DNA of 64,000 nucleotides from a plasmid. A program made the position numbers and the translations under genes. Below the pieces are notes generated by a model. That model was not told the DNA's origin. It did no database searches and worked only from the letters and a program-made list of their open reading frames with translations. Positions 5,661-45,482 of the stretch are shown piece after piece; position 1 is the first letter of the stretch, and each line of letters opens with the position of its first letter. Where the stretch lies: sequence record NZ_CP106961.1, one strand, 5' to 3'.

Positions 5661-6499
5661 CGCTGGTCAGCCGCACCATGGGCGTGTCGCGTGCGCAGCT
5701 GTCACTGCGAATTAACCGTTCTGCCGACTGGCAGGACAGGCGCTGTAACCGGCGTGATGACGAAGCAGACGCTGAAATACTGTCAGAGATCCTCGATATC
5801 ATCAGCGATATGCCCAGTTACGGCTATCGCCGTGTGTGGGGCATCCTGCGTACGCAACGTCGTACAGAGGGACTGCCCCCCGTGAACGCCAAACGGCTTT
5901 ACCGGCTTATGAGCGAGCATAATCTGCTGTTACTGCATGACAAACCAGAGCGGTCGAAGCGTGAACATAAGGGCAAAATCGCGGTGGCAGAAAGCGATAT
6001 GCGCTGGTGTTCAGATGGCTTCGAGTTCGGCTGCGACAACGGTGAGAAGCTGCGGGTCACGTTCGCGCTGGACTGCTGCGACAGAGAAGCCATAGACTGG
6101 GCAGCGAGCACAGGAGGCTACGACAGTTCGACGGTGCAGGATGTGATGCTGAGGTCGGTGGAAAAGCGCTTCGGCGACGGGCTGCCGACCACACCGGTTC
6201 AATGGCTGACGGATAACGGTTCAGCATATACCGCGCATGAAACGCGGAGGTTCGCCAGAGAGCTGAATCTGGAGCCGTGTACAACAGCGGTGAGCAGCCC
6301 GCAGAGCAATGGCATGGCCGAACGGTTCGTGAAGACGATGAAGGAAGACTATATCGCGTTCATGGCAAAACCAGATGTGAGAACAGCCCTGCGAAACCTT
6401 GCAGCAGCGTTCACACATTACAATGAAAACCACCCGCACAGCGCGCTGGGCTATCACTCCCCGAGGGAATATCGGCGGCAGCGGACATCGTTAACTTAA
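5618..6499 (+). CDS. IS2-like transposase OrfB (DDE integrase core), overlapping orfA in the -1 frame
   Basis: 293-aa ORF with an rve-type DDE domain. Confidence 0.85.
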
Positions 6500-6559
6500 G
6501 ATACAAAAGCTGTCCGGAGATGGCGGGTCAAGATCACCTGGAGATGTGGAATTGGCGGC

Positions 6560-7260
6560 CGTCCTGAATGCCGGGCTGAAAAAACGGCTCTGATGCTGCC
6601 GGAAGGGGCATTAACCCGGGAAGAGGCAGTGGCGGCGCAGTATACCAATGTGATGATTGAAGACGATCAGGAGGCACATTTCCGTCTGACCATTCGTTAC
6701 TACAACGGACGACTGATGGCGCGGGTGTGAAATTTCGAACCCGATGCGGGGAACCACCTTAACCGCTACATCAGACACGCGGCGACCTCACCAGAGCAGG
6801 TTCAGTAAGAAAATACCCTGTCGGAGCGCCAACTCCGCAGGACCGACAATCGTGAATATCGGAGTGGTACTAACTATGTCAGTAACAGATGTTAAAGCAA
6901 GAACCGTAAAAAAGGCCAGCGTAAAGAAACCAAACAAAGCCTAACTGGCTGCACTTCAGGCGGCGATCGATGCTGCGCAGACCGAGACTGTTCCGCTGTC
7001 TGATCTCGTTAAATCCTCCTTCACCGTCCGAACCATCCTGTGTTCCTTAGACAGCGTATGCAGCCTGGCTGAAACCATCGCCTCCGTCGGGCTGCTGCAG
7101 AACCTGATTGTCCATGACATGGATGACGGTAAGTCTGGCGTGACAACAGGTGGCCCGCCGTGTGAGCGCGATGCATTGGCTTGCGGAAGAAAACTGACTC
7201 GGCGCCGTTCAACCTGTCACGGTGAAGCGCGTGTCTGTCTGATCGACTGGCTTTTAAGCT
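6560..7260 (+). pseudogene. Leading-region remnants: a 3' fragment of an unknown gene (…[15 protein letters not shown]) and a 5' ParB-like nuclease gene broken by frameshifts
   Basis: MSVTDVKARTVKKASVKKPNKA is followed by a stop. The sequence then continues in another frame with the ParB/Srx N-terminal motif (VPLSDLV...LAETIASVGLLQNLIVH..DG) and shifts frame again. Confidence 0.5.
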
Positions 7261-7671
7261 TATGCTAAGCAGGTGTAGATATTTGGCATATGTATAGATT
7301 TGACTTCTTCGAAGTGATAAAAGTGCGCATGCGATAGATGTAAAAATGCTCTATATAACTCAATTAATCTTTACTTCAACAAGCATCGGACCTTACTCAA
7401 TTAACTGGTGTAGACTTAAAAGCTAAATCTACACTAGAAAAGCTTGAATACAGGTTGTTGTAGAAACAGAGAAGAGCATGGAGAAAGCAGAAAAATGGAT
7501 ATTTGGCAGTGGAATAGTTAATTTAGCTTTTTAAGGAAAAAAAGCCCATGTATTCCATGGACTCTTTCTTAGATGCTTCGTTTATTCTGTCCAACTTTTG
7601 GGTGTCAGTACAAAACGAGGCCATTTGTTTGACTCGACACAAACAGAATAGCCTTTTAACTGCCGCAAGGC

Positions 7672-9230
7672 AAGGGAGGTAAGGCCATTTGTTAACACCA
7701 AGCTGTAATGTCCCCTTTGAACCATTCTAAAATGTCCCCAGACAATTCTCTGGGGGATTTTTCATGATCAAAGAGACTGTTACGATGAGTCATAAGGAAC
7801 TCGACCGACTTCACATTATTCAGGAGTCACTTAATCGCCATATTACTCAGGAACAAGCTGCGGCACGCATTGGCATTTCTATTCGGCAGGTTAAACGTCT
7901 GGTGCAACGGTATAGAAATGAAGGGCCTTCTGGTCTAGTTTCCCGCCGACGTGGAAAGCGTCCCAATAATTCCTTTTCTACCGAATTCAGAGCAACAGTA
8001 ATTTCACTCCTCAAAGGCCGCTACGCTGATTTTGGACCTACGCTTGCGTGCGAAAAATTGCGCGAGATACACGGCTTGTGTTTATCCATTGAAACTCTCA
8101 GGAAGTGGATGGTAGAGGAGGGCATATGGCGCGAACGTCGTCGTAAGTTTGCCCGAATTTATCAGCGCCGGATGCGGCGCCCATCCTACGGTGAACTCAT
8201 CCAGATTGATGGCTCGCCTCATGACTGGTTTGAAGGTCGGGGCCCCAAATGCACACTGATAGTCTTTATCGATGATGCTACCAGCGCTCTGATGGCGCTA
8301 CGATTCGCTCCTGCAGAAACAACCCGGGCTTACATGGAAACCCTCCGGGGTTACCTTAATGATCATGGCGTACCACTGGCTCTCTATTCTGACAGACACA
8401 GTATATTCAGAGTAAATAACCCGGAGCGGGAAGGAGAGTTGACTCAGTTCACACGTGCGATAAAGACACTGGGCATCGAGCCAATCCATGCCAACAGCCC
8501 GCAGGCAAAAGGGCGGGTAGAGCGTGCCAATCAGACACTGCAGGACAGGCTGGTCAAAGAAATGCGGCTTCAGGGTATCAGTGATATTGAAACAGCAAAC
8601 GCATGGTTGCCGACCTTTATTGAAGCCTATAACAACCGGTTTGCTACGCCGCCTCGTATTGCTGATAACGCCCATCTTGATGTACACCATTCTGAAGAGG
8701 AACTGGGTTATATCTTCAGCCTCCAGGCGAAGCGCGTTCTCTCCAAAAATCTCACTTTCCAGTACAAAAGCAGTGCGTTTCAGATTCGCAGTGAAGGCCG
8801 GGGATATCGACTTCGGCATTCGGTTGTCACGGTATGCGAAAGCTTTAACGGTGAAATTAAGGTTCTGTATGATGGGAAAGCGTTGGGATGGGAAAAATAT
8901 GTTGATGGCCCGGAGCCTATACCACTGGATGATGAAAAAAGTGTCCATGAACGTGTGGATAATGCCCGTTTTGATTTACGCTCAAAATTCTACGTAAAAC
9001 CTAAAGCTGACCATCCTTGGCTCACGCGCCGCACGCAAAGTAATCAGCAAGTGAAGCCCCCTAAATTACCCAGAAAGAAGACTGATCCCGATAAAATGGA
9101 CTGAAACCAGGCGTTATTCAGTTGAGTGCATATCCAGTCATAGGATAGATTCTTACGTAGCGTTTCTGGCGTGCATTTTCGGGTGGTTTGTTACTGTTTT
9201 TAACGGGGACACGTCAGAAACGCGCTCAGG
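7672..9230 (+). mobile_element. IS481-family insertion sequence (boundaries approximate)
   Basis: A 446-aa transposase with an N-terminal HTH and a DDE (rve) core (IQIDGSPHDW...ANSPQAKGRVERANQTL). The left end (GGGAGGTAAGGCCATT...TGTAATGTCCCC) is duplicated at 22210, which defines the terminus. Confidence 0.7.
7764..9104 (+). CDS. IS481-family transposase
   Basis: 446-aa ORF with a DDE integrase core. Confidence 0.8.
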   Translation: MIKETVTMSHKELDRLHIIQESLNRHITQEQAAARIGISIRQVKRLVQRYRNEGPSGLVSRRRGKRPNNSFSTEFRATVISLLKGRYADFGPTLACEKLREIHGLCLSIETLRKWMVEEGIWRERRRKFARIYQRRMRRPSYGELIQIDGSPHDWFEGRGPKCTLIVFIDDATSALMALRFAPAETTRAYMETLRGYLNDHGVPLALYSDRHSIFRVNNPEREGELTQFTRAIKTLGIEPIHANSPQAKGRVERANQTLQDRLVKEMRLQGISDIETANAWLPTFIEAYNNRFATPPRIADNAHLDVHHSEEELGYIFSLQAKRVLSKNLTFQYKSSAFQIRSEGRGYRLRHSVVTVCESFNGEIKVLYDGKALGWEKYVDGPEPIPLDDEKSVHERVDNARFDLRSKFYVKPKADHPWLTRRTQSNQQVKPPKLPRKKTDPDKMD

Positions 9231-9323
9231 CCGTCTGAGCGGTACGCGTAAATGAGACGTTATGGTAAATAGTCATCTTGTCAGTGCTATGCTTGGCATA
9301 AACACAATTCTGGATGGTGAAGC

Positions 9324-9500
9324 ATGATTAGTTTTGATCTTGGAAGCGATGGATTCAAAGCGGAGTGTAGTGATAACGATACGGCAGAAATAATTGTCGC
9401 TAGCGCTGTTGGTGTTGCCGTAGTCGCCCTAGCCTCTGCGGGCGCTTATGCCATTGTGAACAAAGTGTCTGAGTCGGTAATTCAGTTGATTGAAGAGTGA
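9324..9500 (+). CDS. Small (58 aa) predicted single-pass membrane peptide (MISFDLGSDGFKAECSDNDTAEIIVASAVGVAVVALASAGAYAIVNKVSESVIQLIEE)
   Basis: Translated by hand; it falls below the cutoff of the supplied ORF track. There is a weak SD (GGTGA) upstream and a rho-independent terminator (agctcgccatgcgagcttttt) at 9536-9562 downstream. Confidence 0.3.
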   Translation: MISFDLGSDGFKAECSDNDTAEIIVASAVGVAVVALASAGAYAIVNKVSESVIQLIEE

Positions 9501-9770
9501 TTATTTAGTTCGATATCTTTACAAGCTTAAGCCAAAAGCTCGCCATGCGAGCTTTTTCATGCTCTTCGTATTATGCGACGTTATGGTAAATAGTCTGAAC
9601 TAATGTCAGCGAAGAGCGGACGTTGGTAGATTACAATTAACAGCTGTCGGGTCACGAGATGTTTTTTTTGATTGTTACTCAAATACAATTCTCTCCGAAG
9701 ACTGAGGATACATCGACCATTTATCATAATTGCTGTGGCAGAAAGGAATGTTTTTCTGCCACATACGGGG

Positions 9771-10307
9771 TCAGTTTACTTTTGGAAAGTCCACCACGGT
9801 GTCATTCACACGGTTGACCATATTCGTAAACAGAATCGCACTGACTGCACTGATGACTTCTACTACCTGTCGATCGCTAAAGCCTGCTGCCAGAAAACGA
9901 CTGACGGTTTCTTCTGGTAAGGTGTTGCGGGTCGTCACCAGAGTTTTTACAAATTTGACCAATGCATCAATATGCGGATCTTCCGGGAACTCTCCCCGGC
10001 GTAATGCCTTAATTTGCTCAACGCTGTAACCTGCCATTTTCCCGGTTAACGTATGCGCCGCCAGACAGTAATCACATCCTGACACTTCACTGACCACAAG
10101 GTTAACGGCTTCAATTTCCTGTTTATTCAGCTGGCTTTTCGCCAGCGTGGCGTTGTGTGACAATGCCTGACCCAGAATGTCGGGGGCGATCCCGATGGTC
10201 TGGTAGGCATTCGGGACTTTACCCATCGCTCGTTTAATGGCGCTGAAGAGATCTGCAGTCTTGCCAGTAGCATTTTCAGGTTGTACGGAAGTTAAACGGC
10301 TCATCAT
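9771..10307 (-). CDS. Carboxymuconolactone decarboxylase/AhpD-family protein
   Basis: 178-aa ORF carrying the CxxxH (CDYCLAAH) motif of the CMD/AhpD family. Confidence 0.75.
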   Translation of the reverse strand: MMSRLTSVQPENATGKTADLFSAIKRAMGKVPNAYQTIGIAPDILGQALSHNATLAKSQLNKQEIEAVNLVVSEVSGCDYCLAAHTLTGKMAGYSVEQIKALRRGEFPEDPHIDALVKFVKTLVTTRNTLPEETVSRFLAAGFSDRQVVEVISAVSAILFTNMVNRVNDTVVDFPKVN

Positions 10308-29479: not shown

Positions 29480-30168
29480 AAAGATTTTACCGGTATCCTG
29501 CCATACGCATTACCGGGAGTGCCGCACAGGGAAAATCGTCGGGTACCGCAATGGCGGCAATGGACAAGCTGGCTAAGCACTTACCACCGGGGTTCGCCGG
29601 TGAGTGGGCGGGAAGTTCGTTACAGGAAAGGGAGTCCGCATCACAGCTTCCGGGTCTTATTGTGCTCTCGGTACTGGTGGTATTCATGGTGCTGGCTGCG
29701 CTTTACGAAAGCTGGTCCGTTCCCTTCGCGGTCATACTCGTTGTTCCTCTGGGGCTGCTTGGCGCTGTGCTCGCCGTATCCGTTACGAATATGACGAATG
29801 ACGTCTTTTTCAAAGTGGGCCTGATAACCCTGATTGGACTTTCCGCCAAGAATGCGATTTTGATTATCGAGTTCGCGAGACAATTGATGAATGAAGGAAA
29901 GAGCCTTATTGATGCGACATTGATGGCAGCAAAGCAGCGCTTGCGGCCAATACTCATGACTTCTCTGGCTTTCACATTAGGTGTTGTTCCGCTGATGCTC
30001 GCCAGTGGAGCCAGCGACAGCACGCAGCATGCGATTGGCACCGGTGTATTCGGCGGGATGATTAGCGGAACGCTACTGGCCATTTTCTTTGTTCCGGTAT
30101 TTTTCGTGGCGATCACCCGATTTACTGGCATGCGAAAAGGCAGACCTGGGAATAGCCGGAACGGCTAA
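29480..30168 (+). pseudogene. 3' fragment of an AcrB-like RND efflux pump gene (C-terminal ~200 aa only)
   Basis: …[27 protein letters not shown]…[13 protein letters not shown]…[12 protein letters not shown]…[10 protein letters not shown] matches TM8-12 of AcrB-family pumps. The upstream sequence is a different frame and protein. Confidence 0.75.
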
Positions 30169-30243: not shown

Positions 30244-30732
30244 ATGAACATCATTGTCACTCAAAGGTTAATCATTCGCCCTTTTAAGGCAGAGGATGCG
30301 GCAGCACTTTTCGATTACCTCTCTTCACCACGTGCTCCTTGCTTTAATGATGAAAAGTTACATTCGCTAGCCGAGGCGGAGAGCGACGTGGCTAAACGAG
30401 CCACGGACCCAGCGCAGTTTGCCGTTTGTCTAAAAGAAACTGATACGTTAATCGGACATTTTTTTGCGGACAATAGCGACGAGCCAGACAGCAATACATG
30501 GTCAGTGGGCTGGCATTTTAATCAACGTTATGAACGTCAGGGATATGCGAGCGAGTCAGTTGCTGCACTATTTGATTATTTATTTAAAGTAAAAGATGCC
30601 AGGCGTTTGTATGCCTGGGTAGAAGTTTACAATCTGGCCTCTCAAAAACTCTGTGAACGTTTGCATATGCGGCATGAAGGTTGTTTTAAAGAGTTTGTCG
30701 CCTTTGAAAACGAGGATGGTAAGGCAAGATAG
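30244..30732 (+). CDS. GNAT-family N-acetyltransferase. Its stop codon (TAG) sits exactly at the transposon IR junction, so the native 3' end is possibly altered.
   Basis: 162-aa ORF with a GNAT fold motif (…QRYERQGYASESVAALFDYLF). Confidence 0.75.
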   Translation: MNIIVTQRLIIRPFKAEDAAALFDYLSSPRAPCFNDEKLHSLAEAESDVAKRATDPAQFAVCLKETDTLIGHFFADNSDEPDSNTWSVGWHFNQRYERQGYASESVAALFDYLFKVKDARRLYAWVEVYNLASQKLCERLHMRHEGCFKEFVAFENEDGKAR

Positions 30733-30776
30733 GGGTCGCCTCAGAAAACGGAAAATAAAGCACGCTAAGCCCTTAC

Positions 30777-31217
30777 TTACCCAGATGTTTGACTGTTCGT
30801 GGCACTTTCACCATGGCAATTGCAATTGCCCAACCCTTGCAAAATGCCGCACGCCTCTACAGATCGAGAGCCAGAACACTTCTCGCGCAAATCAACCAAG
30901 TGCCGTTTTAACTGCAACAGCGCGGACACACGCATTTCCACCTGTTGAATATGGGCCTCCAGCAGCGTGTTGACCTCCCCACAGTCCTGCATCGGGTTGT
31001 CTCGCAGACCCAGCAATGCGCGAATCTCGCTCAACGTCATGTCGAGCGAACGGCAATGACGGATGAATTGCAAGCGCTCAATGTGCGCCTCACCGTACAG
31101 CCGGAAGTTGCCACCGCTTCGCGCTGGCTTCGGCAGTAGCCCTTCCTTCTCGTAGTAGCGGATGGTCACGACCTCGCACCCAGAGCGCTTGGCGAGGTCG
31201 CCAATTCTGATTTCCAT
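30777..31217 (-). CDS. cadR: MerR-family metal-responsive regulator (CadR/PbrR-like)
   Basis: 146-aa ORF with an N-terminal MerR HTH (MEIRIGDLAKRSGCEVVTIRYYEKEGLL) and a C-terminal Cys-rich metal site. It is transcribed divergently from the ATPase. Confidence 0.75.
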   Translation of the reverse strand: MEIRIGDLAKRSGCEVVTIRYYEKEGLLPKPARSGGNFRLYGEAHIERLQFIRHCRSLDMTLSEIRALLGLRDNPMQDCGEVNTLLEAHIQQVEMRVSALLQLKRHLVDLREKCSGSRSVEACGILQGLGNCNCHGESATNSQTSG

Positions 31218-31302
31218 GCATCAATCTCCAATTATCACTTGACTCTATAGTGACTATAGAGATTTTAATGGAGGCTGAATAGAAGATTTTCAGGAGTTAC
31301 TC

Positions 31303-33708
31303 ATGAGCGAATGCGCTTCAAAGGGGTGTGGCTGCACGACTGAGCCGATCATCCAACCCACGGCACCGGCCCCGCTGGCAACCGGATCGGCTCAAGCGGT
31401 GTACCGCATCGAGAACATGGATTGCCCGACCGAAGAGGCGCTGATCCGAAGCAAACTGGCCGGTCTGGCGGGGGTGGCGGGTCTTGAATTCAACCTGATG
31501 CAACGTACCTTGGCCGTGCGACACGAATTGCCTTCGTTGTCTCCCGTCGAGCAGGCGCTGAAGGCCATCGGCATGCAAGCTGTGCGCATGGATCAGGCGT
31601 CGGCCGAGCAGACGACCAAGCTGTCCATTGCCAAGATGGATTGCCCGACCGAAGAGACGTTGATCCGCAACAAGCTCGGCACCGTGGCCGGTGTTGCTGA
31701 TCTCGATTTCAACCTGATGCAGCGCACGCTGTCGGTACGCCATGCGAACCAGGTTCTGCCAGACGTGCTCGTGGCACTGCAAGCGCTTGGATTCGAGGCG
31801 CAGGTCGTGGACACGGCAGAGGTCGCATCTCCATCCGCCGCCCCTGTGACCACGCCGACCAACTGGTGGCCGCTGGGCATCTCCTTGGTCACTGCATCGG
31901 CGGCCGAGGCGGTCTACTGGCTCCACAACGGCAATCACTGGTCGGTTGTCGTTCTGGCGCTTGTCGCGGTCTTCACGGGTGGCCTCTCCACCTACAAGAA
32001 GGGGTGGATTGCGCTCAAGAACCGTAATCTCAACATGAACGCCCTCATGTCGATTGCGGTCACGGGTGCCATGTTGATCGGCCACTGGCCCGAAGCGGCA
32101 ATGGTGATGGTACTGTTCGCGCTGGCCGAGGTAATCGAAGCCAAATCGCTGGATCGCGCTCGTAACGCTATCCGTGGCCTGCTCGACCTGACCCCGGAAC
32201 AGGCCACGGTACAGCAGGCTGACGGCACATGGCGCGAGGTGGGCGCCAAGCAAATCACCATCGGCGCCCGCGTCCGGGTCAAACCAGGTGAGCGCATCGC
32301 CCTTGATGGTGAGGTGCTGGAAGGCCGCTCTGCCGTCAACCAAGCCCCGATCACGGGTGAAAGCCTCCCGGTCGAAAAATCCCCCGGTGATTCGGTGTTC
32401 GCTGGCACGATCAACGAATCCGGCTCGTTCGAGTACCGCGTCACCGCCTTGGCCAACAACTCCACTTTGGCCCGGATCATTCACGCGGTAGAGGCTGCGC
32501 AAGGTAGTCGTGCGCCGACTCAGCGTTTTGTCGATCAGTTCGCCCGCTGGTACACCCCCGTTGTATTCGGCGTTGCCATCGCCGTCGCGTTGTTGCCGCC
32601 GCTGTTCATGGGTGCGGCATGGCTCGACTGGATCTACCGTGCATTGGTTCTGCTGGTGGTCGCCTGCCCGTGCGCACTGGTGATCTCTACACCGGTCAGC
32701 ATCGTCAGCGGCCTGGCCGCCGCCGCCCGCCACGGCATTCTCATCAAAGGTGGCGTCTATCTGGAAGAAGGCCGCAAGCTGCGCTGGCTGGCTCTGGACA
32801 AGACCGGCACGATCACGCACGGCAAGCCCGCACAGACCGACTTTGTCACATGGGGCAATGCACTCGCCTCGGACAGCCGCAGCATCGCTGCCAGTCTGGC
32901 GGCCCGCTCGGACCATCCTGTATCCAAGGCGGTGGCACAGGCCGCGCAGACGGACGGGGTTGCCTTGCTCGACGTGGCCGAATTCAACGCGCTGCCCGGT
33001 CGGGGTGTGCAAGGCCAAATCAACGGTGCGACCTACCATCTGGGCAACCACCGGATGCTCGAAGAGCTGGGGCAGTGCACACCAGAGCTGGAGCAGCGCA
33101 TCGCTGCGCTGGAAACCGCTGGCAAGACCGTCGTGATGTTGGTAGGCGCAAAGGCGGTACATGCCTTATTCGCCGTAGCGGACACCATCAAGGACAGCAG
33201 CAGGACCGCCATCGCCGAGCTGCACGCACTGGGCATCAACACCATGATGCTGACCGGCGACAACCCCCATACGGCACAGGCCATTGCCGCACAAGCCGGA
33301 ATCGACCGTGCGCAAGGCAACCTACTCCCAGATGACAAATTGCGCGAAGTGGAGCAACTGGCCCGAAGCGGCAAGGTTGGCATGGTCGGTGATGGCATCA
33401 ACGATGCCCCGGCCTTGGCGCGTGCGGACATCGGCTTTGCAATGGGAGCGGCTGGCACAGATACCGCAATCGAGACCGCCGACGTGGCCCTGATGGACGA
33501 CAACCTGCGCAAGATTCCGACCTTCGTGCGCCTGTCGCGTGCGACGGCGCAGGTGCTGATGCAAAACATTGTGCTGGCCCTTGGCATCAAGGCAGTATTT
33601 CTGGTGCTGACCTTCACGGGTCAAGCGACCATGTGGATGGCGGTGTTTGCTGATATGGGGGCCAGCTTGCTCGTCGTTGGCAATGGCTTGAGGCTGTTGC
33701 GCAAATGA
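31303..33708 (+). CDS. cadA: Cd/Zn/Pb-translocating P1B-type ATPase (CadA/ZntA-like) with two N-terminal HMA domains
   Basis: 801-aa ORF with two CPTEE-type metal-binding domains, the CPC motif (VVACPCALVISTP), DKTGT and GDGINDAP. Confidence 0.85.
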   Translation: MSECASKGCGCTTEPIIQPTAPAPLATGSAQAVYRIENMDCPTEEALIRSKLAGLAGVAGLEFNLMQRTLAVRHELPSLSPVEQALKAIGMQAVRMDQASAEQTTKLSIAKMDCPTEETLIRNKLGTVAGVADLDFNLMQRTLSVRHANQVLPDVLVALQALGFEAQVVDTAEVASPSAAPVTTPTNWWPLGISLVTASAAEAVYWLHNGNHWSVVVLALVAVFTGGLSTYKKGWIALKNRNLNMNALMSIAVTGAMLIGHWPEAAMVMVLFALAEVIEAKSLDRARNAIRGLLDLTPEQATVQQADGTWREVGAKQITIGARVRVKPGERIALDGEVLEGRSAVNQAPITGESLPVEKSPGDSVFAGTINESGSFEYRVTALANNSTLARIIHAVEAAQGSRAPTQRFVDQFARWYTPVVFGVAIAVALLPPLFMGAAWLDWIYRALVLLVVACPCALVISTPVSIVSGLAAAARHGILIKGGVYLEEGRKLRWLALDKTGTITHGKPAQTDFVTWGNALASDSRSIAASLAARSDHPVSKAVAQAAQTDGVALLDVAEFNALPGRGVQGQINGATYHLGNHRMLEELGQCTPELEQRIAALETAGKTVVMLVGAKAVHALFAVADTIKDSSRTAIAELHALGINTMMLTGDNPHTAQAIAAQAGIDRAQGNLLPDDKLREVEQLARSGKVGMVGDGINDAPALARADIGFAMGAAGTDTAIETADVALMDDNLRKIPTFVRLSRATAQVLMQNIVLALGIKAVFLVLTFTGQATMWMAVFADMGASLLVVGNGLRLLRK

Positions 33709-33909
33709 GCTGGAAATTCTTTCTCTACGACTGGGGTGGTCTGAACATCGCGTTGTTCCAAGCCATCAACATGAGCACACCTGCAGCGCTGGAACCGCTG
33801 GCATCGTTCTTCAACCTTGTGATAGGCAACTACTGGACTGCACCACTGATGCTCTTGGCGATGTGGGGATGGTCAAAGTCGGCACCTGACCCAACGCGGG
33901 CCGATGCCA
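33705..33909 (+). pseudogene. 5' fragment of a membrane-protein gene truncated by IS26
   Basis: The ORF MSWKFFLYDWGGLNIALFQAIN… runs into the IS26 IR at 33910. Confidence 0.5.
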
Positions 33910-34842
<933 letters not shown>

Positions 34843-34862
34843 TGAGGAAAAGGAGGTGTTCA

Positions 34863-35228
34863 ATGAGCGCCTACACAGTGTCCCGGCTGGCCCTTGATGC
34901 CGGGGTGAGCGTGCATATCGTGCGCGACTACCTGCTGCGCGGATTGCTACGGCCGGTCGCGTACACCACGGGCGGCTACGGCTTGTTCGATGACACCGCG
35001 TTGCAACGGCTGCGCTTTGTACGGGCTGCCTTCGAAGCGGGTATCGGCCTGGACGCACTGGCGCGGCTGTGCCGGGCGCTGGATGCTGCGGACGGTGACG
35101 GTGCGTCTGCGCAGCTTGCCGTGTTGCGGCAACTCGTCGAGCGTCGGCGCGAGGCCCTGGCCAGCCTCGAAATGCAACTGGCCGCCATGCCAACCGAACC
35201 GGCACAGCACGCGGAGAGTCTGCCATGA
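34863..35228 (+). CDS. merD: MerD
   Basis: 121-aa ORF with [29 protein letters not shown]… matching MerD of Tn21/Tn501. Confidence 0.85.
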
Positions 35229-35461
35229 ACAGCCCAGAGCACTTGCCGTCTGAGACGCACAAACCGATCACCGGCTACTTGTGGGGCGCGCTGGCCGTGC
35301 TCACCTGTCCCTGCCATTTGCCGATTCTCGCCATTGTGCTAGCCGGCACGACGGCCGGCGCGTTCATCGGGGAGCACTGGGGTATTGCAGCCCTCACGCT
35401 GACCGGCTTGTTTGTCCTGTCTGTGACGCGGCTGCTGCGGGCCTTCAAGGGAAGATCATGA
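35225..35461 (+). CDS. merE: MerE
   Basis: 78-aa ORF ([35 protein letters not shown]). Confidence 0.85.
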
Positions 35462-35526
35462 CCGCTTCCCAGCCAGCCGAGAGTGGGCAGCTTTGAGCTT
35501 CGCTACCAATCTGGAGGAGTACCACC

Positions 35527-35739
35527 ATGAACGCAAACGCCCCGAACACTGCCAGTTGCACCACCTGCTGCGTATGCTGCAAAGAAATTCCGCTCGATGC
35601 CGCCTTCACCCCGGAAGGCGCGGAATACGTCGAACATTTCTGCGGGCTGGATTGCTATGAACGCTTCCAGGCACGCGCCAAGGCCGCGACAGAATCTGAC
35701 ATTGCGCCTGTCCCTGGCGGTTCGCAGCCGTCAGATTGA
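35527..35739 (+). CDS. urf2-like small ORF of the Tn21 family (Cys-rich)
   Basis: 70-aa ORF in the position of Tn21 urf2. Confidence 0.55.
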
Positions 35740-35744
35740 GGCAT

Positions 35745-35865
35745 ACCCTAACCTGATGTCAGATGCTTGGCGCAAAGCACGTCAGAATAGAGTTGTAGTT
35801 TGTATTTATTGACACAAGCCGCCAAGGGTAATGGATTTCATCCTGACACTTTTACCTTTGGAGGC
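35745..35865 (+). promoter_or_regulatory. res resolution site region upstream of tnpR
   Basis: Assigned by position, as in Tn21/Tn501. The sequence is AT-rich with tgtc…gaca-type motifs. Confidence 0.5.
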
Positions 35866-35868
35866 ACC

Positions 35869-36426
35869 TTGCAAGGTCAACGCATTGGCTATATCCGCGT
35901 CAGCAGCTTCGACCAGAACCCTGATCGGCAACTGGAGCAAATCGAAGTCGGTAAGGTATTCACCGATAAGGCTTCCGGCAAGGACACGCAACGTCCCGAA
36001 CTTGAAAGGCTGCTGGCCTTTGTGCGCGAGGGCGACACCGTGGTGGTGCACAGCATGGACAGGTTGGCACGCAATCTCGATGACCTGCGCCGCATCGTTC
36101 AGGGGCTGACACAACGGGGCGTGCGGATGGAGTTTGTCAAAGAAGGGCTGGCGTTCACCGGCGATGACTCACCGATGGCCAATTTGATGCTGTCGGTCAT
36201 GGGGGCTTTTGCGGAGTTCGAGCGCGCACTGATCCGCGAACGCCAGCGCGAGGGAATCGTGCTGGCCAAGCAGCGCGGTGCCTACCGGGGACGAAAGAAA
36301 TCGCTGAACAGCGAACAAATTGCCAAGTTGAAACAGCGAGTCGCGGCAGGCGATCAAAAAACCTTGGTGGCCCGTGACTTCGGCATCAGTCGCGAAACCT
36401 TGTACCAGTACCTGCGGGAAGACTGA
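35869..36426 (+). CDS. tnpR: Tn21-family serine resolvase TnpR (TTG start)
   Basis: QGQRIGYIRVSSFDQNPDRQ… is nearly identical to Tn21/Tn501 TnpR. A GGAGG RBS precedes the TTG start. Confidence 0.85.
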   Translation: MQGQRIGYIRVSSFDQNPDRQLEQIEVGKVFTDKASGKDTQRPELERLLAFVREGDTVVVHSMDRLARNLDDLRRIVQGLTQRGVRMEFVKEGLAFTGDDSPMANLMLSVMGAFAEFERALIRERQREGIVLAKQRGAYRGRKKSLNSEQIAKLKQRVAAGDQKTLVARDFGISRETLYQYLRED

Positions 36427-36428
36427 TC

Positions 36429-37393
36429 ATGCCGCGCCGCTCAATCCTGTCCGCCACCGAGCGCGAAAGCCTGCTGGCACTACCAGATGCCAAAGACGAA
36501 CTGATACGGCACTACACGTTCAACGAAACCGACCTATCGGTGATCCGCCAGCGTCGCGGCGCTGCGAATCGATTGGGCTTCGCCGTGCAGCTTTGCTACT
36601 TGCGATTCCCTGGCATCTTCTTGGGCATCGATGAGCCTCCGTTTCCGCCCCTGTTGCGCATGGTGGCCGCACAACTCAAGGTGCCGGTGGAAAGTTGGAA
36701 CGATTACGGCCAGCGCGAGCAGACGCGGCGGGAGCACTTGGTCGAGCTGCAAACGGTGTTCGGGTTCAAGCCCTTCACCATGAGTCACTACCGGCAGCCG
36801 TGCATACATTGACCGAGCTGGCCTTGCAGACCGATAAAGGGATTGTGCTGGCCAGCACCCTTGTCGAAAACCTGCGGCGGCAGAGCATCATCCTGCCCGC
36901 CATGAATGCCATCGAGCGCGCGAGCGCCGAGGCCATCACCCGTGCCAACCGGCGTATTTACGCGGCGTTGACCGATTCTTTGTTATCGCTCCACCGTCAG
37001 CGCCTGGACGAACTTCTCAAGCGCAAGGACGGCAGCAAATTGACGTGGCTGGCATGGCTGCGCCAGTCGCCCGTCAAGCCGAACTCTCGGCATATGCTTG
37101 AACACATCGAGCGCCTCAAGGCTTGGCAGGCGCTTGACCTTCCCGCAGGCATCGAGCGACAAGTTCACCAGAACCGCCTGCTCAAGATCGCCCGTGAGGG
37201 TGGGCAGATGACGCCTGCCGATCTGGCAAAGTTCGAGATGCAACGACGCTATGCCACTCTGGTTTCGCTGGCCATTGAAGGTATGGCCACCGTCACCGAC
37301 GAAATCATCGACCTGCACGACCGCATCATTGGCAAACTATTCAACGCCGCCAAGAACAAGCATCAGCAGCAGTTTCAGGCTTCCGGCAAAGCC
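36429..37393 (+). pseudogene. tnpA: tnpA 5' part (Tn21-family transposase, aa 1 to about 328), with a frameshift near 36800
   Basis: MPRRSILSATERESLLALPDAKDELIRHYTF… continues in a second frame (…[17 protein letters not shown]…[10 protein letters not shown]), then homology breaks off. Confidence 0.8.
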
Positions 37394-38699
37394 CGCTGTG
37401 TCGGTGTAGTGCTCCTCGATCCGCAAGTCCGACTCGTGGTACAGCAGGCCATCGAGCACATAGGTTGAATCACGCACGCCGACGTTGACTACCTTGGTGC
37501 TGAAGGGCGCGTACTGGTCGGAGATATGGGTATAAAACGTCCGGCCTGGACTGCTTCCATACTTCGGGTTGATATGCCCGGTGCTCTCCGCTTTGCTGCC
37601 GGTTCTGAAATTTTGGCCATCCGACGATGACGTGGTGCCATCGCCCCAGTTTCCGGCAAAGGATTGCCGGAACTGCGCGTTGACCAGTTCGGCCAGCGCC
37701 GTTGAGTACGTTTCATCCCGGATGTGCCAGGCTTGCAGCCACGACAGCTTGGCGTAAGTCGTGCCTGGGCAGGACTCGGCCATCTTGGTTAGCCCGAGAT
37801 TGATGCCATCAGCCAGGATCGTCGTCAGCAGCAAGGTTTTGTCCTTGGCCGTGTCGCCGGTCTTCAGATGCGTGAAATGCCGGGTGAAGCCTGTCCACTC
37901 ATCAACTTCCATCAGCAGTTCGGTAATCTTGACGTGTGGCAGCAGCATCGCCGACTGGTCGATTAGGGCTTGTGCGGTCTCCGGCACCGCCGCGTCCAGC
38001 GGCGTGATCTTCAGGCCGGACTCGGTAATGATGGCATCCGGCAGATCATTGGCCGCCGCCATGCGGTTGACGGTGGCAAGCTGCTGTTCCAGCAATGCCA
38101 GTCGGTCGTGCAAATACTGATCGCAATCGGTGGCCACTGCCAGCGACAATTCGTTGGCCAGCTTCAGAGTAGCGAACTTCTCGGCCGGCACCAGGTACTC
38201 ATCAAAGTCCTTGAACTGGCGCGAACCCTGCACCCAGACATCGCCTGATCGCAGCGCGTTCTTTAGCTCTGACAGGGCGCACAGCTCGTAGTAGCGCCGG
38301 TCAATGCCATCGTCCGTGAGCACCAGTTTCGCCCAGCGTGGCTTGATGAATGCGGTCGGCGCGTCGGCGGGCACCTTGCGGGCGTTGTCGCTGTTCATGC
38401 CGCGAAGCACCTCGATGGCATCGAGTACGCCCTTGGCGGCTGGTGCCGCCCGTAACTTAAGTACGTCCAGGAACTGCGGCGCGTAGCGGCGCAACGTGGC
38501 GTAGCTTTCACCGATGCGATGCAGAAAGTCGAAGCTCTCCGGCTGCGCGAGCTTTTGCGCCTCCGTGACGCTGGCGGCGAAGGTATCCCACGGCATTACG
38601 GCCTCGATGGCGGCGAACGGATCGCCGCCGCTCTGTTTGGCTTCCAGCAAGGCTTGGCCGATGCGGCCATACATCCGCACCTTGTCATTGATCGCCTTA
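37394..38699 (-). pseudogene. tnpA: tnpA internal segment (about aa 329-775) in inverted orientation
   Basis: The minus-strand ORF reads [18 protein letters not shown]…HYTDTAGF, which is the contiguous middle of Tn21 TnpA. Confidence 0.8.
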
Positions 38700-39397
38700 C
38701 CGATCATGTCTTCGGCCTGATGCACCTACTGGGCTTCCGATTCGCGCCACGTATCCGAGACCTGGGCGACACCAAGCTATTCATCCCAAAGGGCGATGCC
38801 GCCTATGACGCGCTCAAGCCGATGATTAGCAGCGACCGGCTGAACATCAAGCAGATACGCGCCCATTGGGATGAAATCTTGCGGTTCGCCACTTCGATCA
38901 AGCAGGGTACGGTGACGGCCTCGCTGATGTTGCGCAAGCTCGGCAGCTATCCGCGTCAGAACGGACTGGCCGTTGCACTGCGCGAGCTGGGGCGCATTGA
39001 GCGCACGTTGTTCATACTGGATTGGCTGCAAAGCGTGGAGCTGCGCCGCCGCGTGCAGGCCGGACTCAACAAAGGCGAGGCGCGCAACGCGCTGGCCAGG
39101 GCGGTGTTCTTCAACCGACTGGGCGAAATCCGCGACCGCAGTTTTGAGCAACAACGCTACCGGGCCAGCGGCCTCAATCTGGTAACGGCGGCCATCGTGC
39201 TTTGGAACACGGCCTATCTGGAACGGGCAACCAATGCTTTGAACGGGCACGGCAAACCGGTAGACGAGACGCTGTTTCAATACCTGTCACCGCTGGGGTG
39301 GGAACACATCAATCTGACCGGCGATTACCTCTGGCGCAGCAGCACCAAGGTCGGCGCAGGCAAGTTCAGACCGTTGCGACCACTGCCACCGGCTTAA
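38700..39397 (+). pseudogene. tnpA: tnpA 3' part (aa about 776-988), ending just inside the right IR
   Basis: [43 protein letters not shown]… through …RPLRPLPPA* is the TnpA C-terminus. Confidence 0.8.
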
Positions 39398-39430
39398 CGT
39401 GCTTTATTTTCCGTTTTCTGAGACGATCCC

Positions 39431-39692
39431 TTATGAGCCTGCTGTCACCCTTTGACGTGGTGATATGGATGACGGATGGCTGGCCGCTGTATGAATCCCG
39501 CCTGAAGGGAAAGCTGCACGTAATCAGCAAGCGATATACGCAGCGAATTGAGCGGCATAACCTGAATCTGAGGCAGCACCTGGCACGGCTGGGACGGAAG
39601 TCGCTGTCGCTCTCAAAATCGGTGGAGCTGCATGACAAAGTCATCGGGCATTATCTGAACATAAAACACTATCAATAAGTTGGAGTCATTAC
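39431..39692 (+). mobile_element. IS1 3' fragment (C-terminal insB plus the right IR ggtaatgactccaactt), truncated at the transposon IR
   Basis: …[57 protein letters not shown]…KHYQ* matches InsB. The IS1 IRR sequence is at 39667-39692. Confidence 0.85.
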
Positions 39693-39693
39693 C

Positions 39694-39836
39694 CTTTTTT
39701 CAACTTCTGATGGAAGCGAGTGATTGAACTCATACATTAATGTTTTCCCACGAAGTCTTTTTTCAGGTAAGCCTTCGCACATATCGGTAAATAGCTTGCC
39801 TGCTTTTATTTTTTCTGTCATCGACATGTTCATTTT
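39694..39836 (-). pseudogene. lacA: lacA 5' fragment (galactoside O-acetyltransferase N-terminus) truncated by IS1
   Basis: The minus-strand translation MNMSMTEKIKAGKLFTDMCEGLPEKRLRGKTLMYEFNHS… matches the LacA N-terminus. Confidence 0.6.
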
Positions 39837-39898
39837 TAACATTCCGTCCTGATAAGTTGGTCGGATAAGGCGCTCGCGCCGTATCCGACATTAATTTC

Positions 39899-41197
<1,299 letters not shown>

Positions 41198-41203
41198 TTA
41201 TTA

Positions 41204-44399
<3,196 letters not shown>

Positions 44400-45482
44400 T
44401 CACTGCCCGCTTTCAAGTCGGGAAACTTGTCGTGCCAGCTGCATTAAGGAATCTGCCAACGTGCGGGGAGAGGTGGTTTGCGTATTGGGCGGTAGGGTGG
44501 TTTTTCTTTTCACCAGTGAGACGGGCAACAGCTGATTGCTCTTCACCGCCTGGCCCTGAGAGAGTTTCAGCAAGCGGTCCACGCTAGTTTTCCCCAGCAG
44601 GCGAAAATCCTGTTTGATGGTGGTTAACGGCGGGATATAACACGAGCTGTCTTCGGTATCGTCGTATCCCACTACCGAGATATCCGCACCAACGCGCAGC
44701 CCGGACTCGGTAATAGCGCGCATTGCGCCCAGCGCCATCTGATCGTTGGCAACCAGCATCGCAGTGGGAACGATGCCCTCATTCAGCATTTGCATAGTTT
44801 GTTGAAAACCGGACATGGCACTCCAGTCGCCTTCCCGTTCCGCTATCGGATGAATTTGATTGCGTGTGAGATATTTATGCCAGTCCGCCAGACGCAGACG
44901 CGCCGAGACAGAACTTAATGGACCGGCTAACAACGCGATTTGCTGGTGACCCAATGCGATCAGATGCTCCACACCCAGTCGCGTACCGTCTTCATGGGAA
45001 AAAATAATACTGTTGATGGGAGTCTGGTCAGAGACATCAAGAAATAGGGCCGGAACATTAGCGCAGGCAGCTTCCACAGCAATGGCATCCTCGTCATCCA
45101 GCGGATAGTTAATGATCAGACCACTGACGCGTTGCGCGAGAAGGTTATGTACCGCCGCTTTACAGGCTTCGACGCTGCTTCGTTCTACCATCGACACCAC
45201 CACGCTGGCACCCAGTTGATCGGCGCGAGATTTAATCGCCGCGACAATTTGCGACGGCGCGTGCAGGGCCAGACTGGAGGTAGCAACGCCAATCAGCAAC
45301 GACTGTTTGCCCGCCAGTTGTTGTGCCACGCGGTTGGGAATGTAGTTCAGCTGCGCCATCGCCGCTTCCACCTTTTCCCGCGTTTTCGCAGAGACGTGGC
45401 TGGCCTGGTTCATCACGCGGGAAACGGTCTGATAAGAGACACCGGCATACTCTGCGACATCGTATAGCGTTACTGGTTTCAC
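44400..45482 (-). CDS. lacI: Lac repressor LacI (GTG start)
   Basis: VKPVTLYDVAEYAGVSYQTVSRV… through …RLESGQ*, 360 aa. Confidence 0.9.
   Translation of the reverse strand: MKPVTLYDVAEYAGVSYQTVSRVMNQASHVSAKTREKVEAAMAQLNYIPNRVAQQLAGKQSLLIGVATSSLALHAPSQIVAAIKSRADQLGASVVVSMVERSSVEACKAAVHNLLAQRVSGLIINYPLDDEDAIAVEAACANVPALFLDVSDQTPINSIIFSHEDGTRLGVEHLIALGHQQIALLAGPLSSVSARLRLADWHKYLTRNQIHPIAEREGDWSAMSGFQQTMQMLNEGIVPTAMLVANDQMALGAMRAITESGLRVGADISVVGYDDTEDSSCYIPPLTTIKQDFRLLGKTSVDRLLKLSQGQAVKSNQLLPVSLVKRKTTLPPNTQTTSPRTLADSLMQLARQVSRLESGQ

Follow-up and report, generated by a model that had tools for sequence, protein, structure and literature searches.

The closest described relative of the element reported here is the cadR/P-type ATPase/PAP2-lspA transposon of the Tn3 family carried by the plasmids pLVPK and pK2044. 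We compared it with an 8.7-kb element (positions 30732-39430) in a 64,000-nucleotide stretch of plasmid NZ_CP106961.1, hereafter the window. The two have the same terminal inverted repeats (IRs), and their tnpR, tnpA and the part of the res region to the right of site I are 99.8-99.9% identical. They differ in that the window tnpA is internally inverted and frameshifted, in that its passenger arm is interrupted by IS26 and derives in part from a mer operon, and in the insertion site, which here is an IS1 fragment and lacY. Tn21, Tn1696 and Tn501 are also similar, with 38-bp IRs, the same order and direction of res, tnpR and tnpA, and a merD-merE-urf2 arm joined at res site I. Unlike these transposons, the window element is predicted to be incapable of self-transposition, and most genes of that group match its tnpA at just 80-90% nucleotide identity. 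We show that this tnpA is a pseudogene of a Tn3-family (Tn21-subgroup) transposase with two independent lesions, an internal inversion and a single-base deletion, and that the inversion is shared by a family of plasmids.

Two other kinds of described system bear on the inversion itself. In Salmonella, spontaneous inversions bounded by short inverted repeats occur genome-wide (Sun et al. 2012, PMC3411829); the window inversion likewise has a short stretch of inverted homology at each end and lacks a dedicated recombinase site. The verified Salmonella inversions, however, have microhomology of at least 12 bp (PMC3411829), whereas the repeat in the window is 9 bp long with two mismatches and is exact over 2 bp at the crossover. 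The Hin, Gin and Cin invertases and the Rci shufflons likewise invert a segment between inverted repeats, with a 2-bp crossover core. In contrast to these systems, the window segment has no invertase-type site or enhancer, is found in one orientation, and has a non-functional product.

We used as a reference the intact copy on pLVPK (NC_005249), in which tnpR occupies 6070-6627 and the 2970-bp tnpA occupies 6630-9599. BLAST comparison of window positions 35800-39420 with this copy returned three blocks: 35800-37389, which is collinear with a single 1-bp gap; 37384-38702, which is reverse-complemented at 99.8% identity; and 38694-39420, which is again collinear. Adjacent blocks overlap by 6 and 9 nucleotides at the two junctions. 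When the junctions were mapped per base against both orientations of the ancestor, the uniquely inverted DNA was resolved to 37390-38696 (1307 bp), and the inversion proved to be reciprocal, with no base gained or lost at the left or right junction. The gene and the chance reading frame across it are arranged as follows.

36429 to 37389, plus strand: tnpA segment 1, codons 1-320 and 2 nucleotides of codon 321, carrying the -1 frameshift
37390 to 38696, minus strand: inverted tnpA segment, 1307 bp, codons 322-756
38697 to 39397, plus strand: tnpA segment 3, 2 nucleotides of codon 757, codons 758-989 and the stop, encoding the C-terminal part of DDE_Tnp_Tn3 (Pfam)
37337 to 38725 (GTG start, 462 residues) or 37337 to 38707 (ATG start, 456 residues), minus strand: accidental open-reading frame (ORF) spanning the inverted segment

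A preliminary description of this DNA had proposed an internal tnpA inversion of about 1.3 kb and a frameshift near 36800, and both are upheld by the three-block alignment and the per-base mapping. Its breakpoints, 37393 and 38700, lie within 3-4 bases of the ends of the uniquely inverted DNA, 37390 and 38696; the exchange itself maps to 37388-37389 and 38697-38698. Its codon boundaries (1 to about 328, about 329-775 and about 776-988, for a protein of 988 residues) must be replaced by codons 1-320, 322-756 and 758-989 of a 989-residue protein, with codons 321 and 757 split by the junctions.

The frameshift is due to loss of one A at 36795/36796 (CAAG to CAG) in codon 123 of tnpA, which shifts the frame by -1 and brings in a stop at 36810-36812; the sequence around this site reads CGGCAAGCCGTG with the deletion versus CGGCAGCCGTG without it. 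Two sequences of the collinear gene, TTCCGGCAAGGCGATCAATG and GCGGGCTTTACCGATCATG, are k-mers of the uninverted form. Otherwise the window tnpA differs from that of pLVPK by three single-nucleotide polymorphisms (SNPs), at 37282, 37442 and 39008. Re-inversion of the segment in silico and restoration of the missing A yielded a stop-free ORF of 989 codons, whose product is 100% identical to the pLVPK transposase, WP_004213592.1; all three SNPs are therefore synonymous. The three segments make up one 99.9%-identical gene and sum exactly to 2969 nucleotides, and, given the exact repair, their arrangement cannot be chance.

The ORFs called between 34000 and 42000 reflect this structure. They comprise a plus-strand ORF at 36429-36812, a second plus-strand frame that runs on to 37468, the 462-residue minus-strand ORF (37337-38725), which contains the peptide HYTDTAGF, and a plus-strand ORF ending at 39397. 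We found no sigma-70-like promoter in 35700-39500, so expression of the minus-strand ORF is unsupported.

The repaired protein is a full-length transposase of the Tn3 family. It scores 1302 bits against NCBIfam model NF033527 (cutoff 500), contains the Pfam domains DUF4158 (residues 6-169) and DDE_Tnp_Tn3 (residues 580-967), and aligns end to end with the Tn4430 TnpA of structure 7QD8 (E = 2e-231). The DDE triad of Tn4430 is D679, D751 and E881 (PMC9579193), and D753 of the repaired protein aligns with D751. The right junction, in codon 757, falls 4 residues past this second catalytic Asp, and both Asp residues of the triad are therefore separated from the Glu. With a frameshift in the N-terminal domain and a split triad, the product of the window gene would certainly be non-functional, in agreement with the preliminary description, which had called the transposase dead. 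The large DDE transposase of about 1000 residues that characterizes the Tn3 family is thus recovered only by in-silico repair and lies in three pieces in the window, and the autonomous transposition that also characterizes the family is predicted to be lost.

The preliminary description had suggested that databases be searched for the same inversion elsewhere, and we found it in many independent assemblies. In a megablast search of PLSDB with 35800-39420, seven plasmids were 100% identical across the whole query. Hundreds of other records, mostly Klebsiella virulence plasmids of the pLVPK and pK2044 kind, matched at 99.8% over 64% of the query in two pieces, which is the pattern predicted by an inverted middle third. 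A 200-bp left-junction probe, applied with a coverage threshold of 80% or more, was present in exactly 7 of 72,556 PLSDB plasmids, six from Leclercia and one from Enterobacter mori. These seven plasmids are complete and come from at least five sources; those recorded include a rabbit, two showers and maize rhizosphere soil. The left junction was found in none of 5426 complete E. coli genomes, and exact-pattern scans of GTDB species representatives returned neither the left junction nor the junction between the right IR (IRR) and IS1, TCTGAGACGATCCCTTATGAGCCTGCTGTCACC. Among plasmids, the contiguous IRR-IS1 junction occurs only in the six Leclercia plasmids.

The inversion created the 456-residue ORF with the ATG start, which public assemblies contain in 152 indexed blocks; look-ups of the 462-residue ORF with the GTG start and of a 257-residue plus-strand ORF returned no record. 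We read ten of these loci, from NCBI isolate assemblies and ENA metagenomes, and all ten have a gapless order of res, tnpR, broken tnpA, IRR, IS1 fragment and lacY, with the same lesions and no more than one SNP within the transposon. The collinear gene, by comparison, is found at 99% identity or more in about 500 plasmids, and none of the 40 collinear matches listed has the frameshift. The inversion is real, has a single origin and has since spread.

One metagenome contig, OFAQ01000303.1 (positions 1-1883), carries the junction in a different context. The first ~750 nucleotides of its tnpA come from another Tn21-like gene (~78% identity) and lack the frameshift; from about 37175 across the junction it is 100% identical to the window, save for a small mosaic patch at 37327-37339. 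This hybrid tnpA either formed by natural recombination or is an artefact of chimeric assembly of the metagenome.

No gene is listed for this region in PLSDB, whose tables leave out pseudogenes. We found no description of the allele in the literature on cadR/lspA/Tn3 or on internal tnpA inversion in Tn21, and it is also absent from a 2026 paper on the mobile elements of Leclercia. One GenBank annotation labels the collinear gene TnAs2, but papers using that name treat mcr-3 contexts and were uninformative.

We also note variation beside the shared segment. The lac flank (39431-45000) is patchily divergent, by up to ~1.5%, between the window and three of the loci read (L012-L014), beginning about 180-285 nucleotides to the right of the IR. 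The 3.7 kb of res, tnpR and tnpA are invariant in L012-L014 despite this divergence. The pattern points to recombination within the lac region or to a recent spread of the dead transposon. In the Enterobacter mori plasmid, NZ_OQ821056.1, the match ends at 39409, inside the right IR, and the annotation of the matched region includes an IS5075-family transposase. IS5075 targets the terminal repeats of Tn21-type elements.

The sequence at the junctions is informative about how the inversion arose. In the ancestor, the breakpoints fall in two copies, 1.3 kb apart within tnpA, of a 9-bp imperfect inverted repeat of the form CGG(C/T)AA(G/A)GC. The left copy is CGGCAAGGC and the right copy GCTTTACCG (reverse complement CGGTAAAGC), and they are complementary at 7 of 9 positions. 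In the window they appear as follows.

37384 to 37392: left junction microhomology, CGGCAAAGC, with exchange limited by per-base comparison to the AA at 37388-37389
38694 to 38702: right junction microhomology, GCCTTACCG, with exchange limited by the same comparison to the TT at 38697-38698

The left junction retains the left-specific C at 37387 and the inverted-specific A at 37390, while the right junction retains the inverted-specific C at 38696 and the right-specific A at 38699. This reciprocal segregation of the mismatched positions confines the exchange to the AA and TT dinucleotides. The junction motif given in the preliminary description is correct on the left, GGCAAAGCC, but the right junction does not read GGCTTTGCC; similarly, the short inverted repeats that it invoked exist in imperfect form and are weaker and less symmetric than it implied. 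Only 1.1% of random breakpoint pairs equal or beat a 7/9 repeat (p about 0.011), and the event was probably guided by microhomology.

We consider it very likely that one spontaneous, microhomology-associated illegitimate inversion, together with the 1-bp deletion, produced an allele that has been clonally inherited. The features expected of a microhomology-associated illegitimate inversion are found: the two breakpoints share inverted microhomology, and the junction is reciprocal and free of templated insertions. Illegitimate recombination would have taken place once within tnpA, at the 9-bp imperfect inverted repeat, with strands exchanged inside the common AA/TT dinucleotide. The route could have been replication template switching or break-and-rejoin at the microhomology, in either case with no need for a dedicated enzyme. 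Thereafter, the allele would have been passed on and disseminated together with a family of Leclercia and Enterobacter plasmids that carry the lac operon. An element of this kind should be unable to transpose itself, may be open to the action of a helper TnpA in trans, and could continue to recombine through its resolvase and res.

Several observations weigh against this account. The repeat is weak, with just 2 bp unambiguously common at the crossover. Moreover, tnpA holds about 8,500 inverted 9-nucleotide windows that match at 7 or more of 9 positions (838 at 8/9 and 52 perfect), and much longer imperfect inverted repeats are also present. Given this abundance of equal or better repeats, the site of the inversion was not predetermined, and the choice of exactly these two sites is not explained by homology alone. 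Plasmid and GTDB searches revealed no collinear copy inserted at this IS1/lac site, so no intermediate is known. Finally, a perfectly conservative exchange in an identical 2-bp core is the geometry of serine recombinases.

This last point leads to the alternative that a site-specific recombinase (the element's own TnpR, a plasmid DNA invertase, or an integron or Xer-type integrase) inverted the segment at cryptic sites, with AA as a 2-bp overlap. An apparently active tnpR lies 1 kb away, and crossovers at res site I have occurred in this lineage. Yet, compared with res site I, the junction sites agree at just 7-11 of 26 flanking positions, a score between the 4th and 49th percentile of all tnpA positions, and the junction arose once rather than recurrently. 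Wild-type Tn3/gamma-delta resolvase depends on directly repeated, complete res sites and does not catalyse inversion. By eye, no resemblance of the junction sites to hix and gix half-sites was apparent. We regard an origin by recombinase as improbable.

An even smaller likelihood attaches to intramolecular transposition of an insertion sequence (IS), for example IS26 or IS1, followed by loss of the IS, or to the joining of two opposed tnpA copies. IS26 and IS1 are both adjacent, and tail-to-tail pairs of Tn21-like tnpA genes elsewhere (CP135499, CP051332) mimic an inversion in BLAST tables. However, the junctions carry no IS sequence, no target duplication and no extra or missing base, and correspond to ancestral tnpA base for base; there is a single IS26 in the window, and all three tnpA segments derive from one 99.9%-identical gene. 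CP135499 (Enterobacter cloacae) and CP051332 (Salmonella) were themselves considered as diverged copies of the same inversion, given 83% coverage on one strand, and were rejected after alignment. At about 6000-10300, each has a mer transposon with an internally deleted tnpA, tail-to-tail with a second Tn21-like tnpA, at 80-84% identity and with other junctions.

The two remaining explanations have next to no chance of being correct. A programmed, reversible segment that switches transposase expression in the manner of phase variation would account for an inverted segment bounded by inverted repeats and for nothing more, and it is contradicted by the single, inactive orientation of all copies at the insertion site, by the frameshift in codon 123 that keeps the gene dead in either orientation, by a repeat of just 9 bp with two mismatches, and by some 500 near-identical copies elsewhere that are all collinear; we found neither a second orientation at this locus, nor res I-like sites at the borders, nor two functional states. 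An assembly artefact of a single genome project, which the preliminary description had named as its refuting condition and for which we found no evidence, is answered by the identical junction in seven complete plasmids of different isolates, in a metagenome contig, and in 10 further contigs out of the 152 blocks, assemblies that have no common template.

Around the tnpA that, in our preferred reading, was broken by illegitimate inversion, the element retains most parts of a Tn21-subgroup transposon. From left to right it consists of the left IR (IRL), cadR, the ATPase gene, truncated lspA, IS26, truncated merA, merD, merE, urf2, res, tnpR, broken tnpA and IRR. The parts outside tnpA are the following.

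30732 to 30769, plus strand: IRL, 38 bp, GGGGTCGCCTCAGAAAACGGAAAATAAAGCACGCTAAG, 1 difference from the Tn21 IR, identical to the pLVPK IRL, left flank AGATA
30777 to 31217, minus strand: cadR, ancestral passenger arm
31303 to 33708, plus strand: heavy-metal P-type ATPase, ancestral passenger arm
33705 to 33909: 5' remnant of PAP2/lspA, ancestral passenger arm, cut by IS26
33910 to 34729, minus strand: IS26, 820 bp, with terminal 14-bp IRs and a transposase ORF at 33962-34684, annotated at the matching place in the Leclercia plasmid L002
34730 to 35739, plus strand: mer remnant, with the merA 3' end, merD (34863-35228), merE (35225-35461) and urf2/DUF3330 (35527-35739)
35730 to 35868, plus strand: res region, with putative site I at 35730-35757, GTCAGATTGAGGC AT ACCCTAACCTGAT, central AT at 35743-35744
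35869 to 36426, plus strand: tnpR, 185-residue serine resolvase with a TTG start and the Pfam domains Resolvase and HTH_7
39393 to 39430, minus strand: IRR, 38 bp, 2 differences from the Tn21 IR, identical to the pLVPK IRR, flank TTATG

The preliminary description had considered the IRs, res and tnpR intact, and our comparison agrees: the IRs are identical to those of pLVPK and the tnpR DNA matches that of pLVPK at 99.9% and that of two Leclercia plasmids (L002 and L003) at 100%, although the interior of the element is nonetheless broken by IS26. WP_004213590.1 is the protein annotated for TnpR both on pLVPK and on Leclercia plasmids that are 100% identical here. Within res, identity with the cad-type element begins at 35743. 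The label Tn21-family is also acceptable, as the IRs have 1-2 mismatches to those of Tn21 in 38 positions and there are about 4,400 matching tnpA copies in plasmids at 80-90% nucleotide identity. No IR match would be expected in the window by chance, so that the inverted ends of about 38 bp typical of the Tn3 family are present, as are, on sequence grounds, a predicted TnpR and an adjacent res. The arrangement that marks the Tn21 subgroup, Tn21-type IRs with res upstream of co-directional tnpR and tnpA, is found as well. The 5-bp target-site duplication usual for the family is absent from the flanks of the element (AGATA at 30727-30731 versus TTATG), which points to later rearrangement of the flanks or to an intramolecular event. 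On the right, IRR directly adjoins an internal IS1 fragment (39431-39678, the 3' part of insB), which is followed by lacY, lacZ and lacI. Because both IRs are intact, mobilization in trans by a compatible TnpA, as the preliminary description proposed, is in principle plausible.

The passenger arm is a composite. The cad part (30777 to 33909) matches CP106670 at 99.97% and pLVPK at 96.7% identity, and the mer remnant (34730 to 35739) is 100% identical to pLEC-000f of Leclercia sp. LSNIH1. IS26 fuses the truncated PAP2/lspA to the last ~116 nucleotides of merA and has no 8-bp target duplication (flanks GATGCCAG and CCGTGCAG); the cad/mer chimera is the product of an IS26-associated deletion or recombination. 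The same IS26 adjoins merC in LSNIH1. The simplest form of the element is found on plasmid p5 of L. adecarboxylata QDSM01 (CP106670), which has an uninterrupted cad arm and the same broken tnpA.

Among the carriers of the allele that we designated L008-L017, three different left arms sit on the same dead tnpA backbone: a cad arm (cadR, ATPase and PAP2-lspA) in L008, L012 and L013; a complete merRTPCADE-urf2 operon in L010, L011, L016 and L017; and a class 1 integron (intI1-dfrA-aadA-qacEdelta1-sul1) in L009. When aligned, the cad, mer and integron arms diverge at one base, immediately to the left of the central AT of the imperfect palindrome at 35730-35757, and to the right of this point all carriers are identical to the pLVPK-type backbone. 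From this common divergence point, we take the palindrome as the probable res site I. The cad arm is native, since it is present with the backbone in about 500 collinear copies. The broken tnpA and the right flank are common to all variants, and the swapping of arms at res I therefore postdates immobilization, which suggests that res and tnpR may still be in use. Modular hybrids formed by crossover at res are reportedly typical of the Tn21 subgroup. One could envision that tnpR and res now serve as a fixed platform on the lac plasmids of Leclercia and Enterobacter, repeatedly capturing Tn21-subgroup arms at res site I, with loss of the transposase favored or tolerated; we think this unlikely. 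In a more extreme version of the platform idea, the inversion itself would have been made by a recombinase at a cryptic site with an AA core.

The two junction sequences and the 456-residue chimeric ORF form a unique and stable marker of one plasmid-borne lineage, which should be of use in annotation and epidemiology. The lineage so marked is a dead cad-type Tn3-family transposon beside IS1-lacYZI, in Leclercia, Enterobacter mori and several metagenomes. The locus illustrates cleanly, in nature, an inversion at inverted homology that is both very short and imperfect, and it exemplifies how exchange of metal, mercury and integron modules by res and TnpR can persist despite a dead transposase. 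The lesion is of an ordinary inactivating kind and represents no new mechanism or system, and the exchange of modules at res illustrates a known property of the Tn21 subgroup well and is no new principle.

To the left of the element, a 205-residue ORF at 29551-30168 is similar to the C-terminal portion of an AcrB-like efflux pump of the RND type and looks like a gene fragment; the PLSDB gene table has no entry at the matching position of CP106670. It lies just upstream of an ORF for a GNAT acetyltransferase (30244-30732), whose stop codon overlaps the first base of the left IR.

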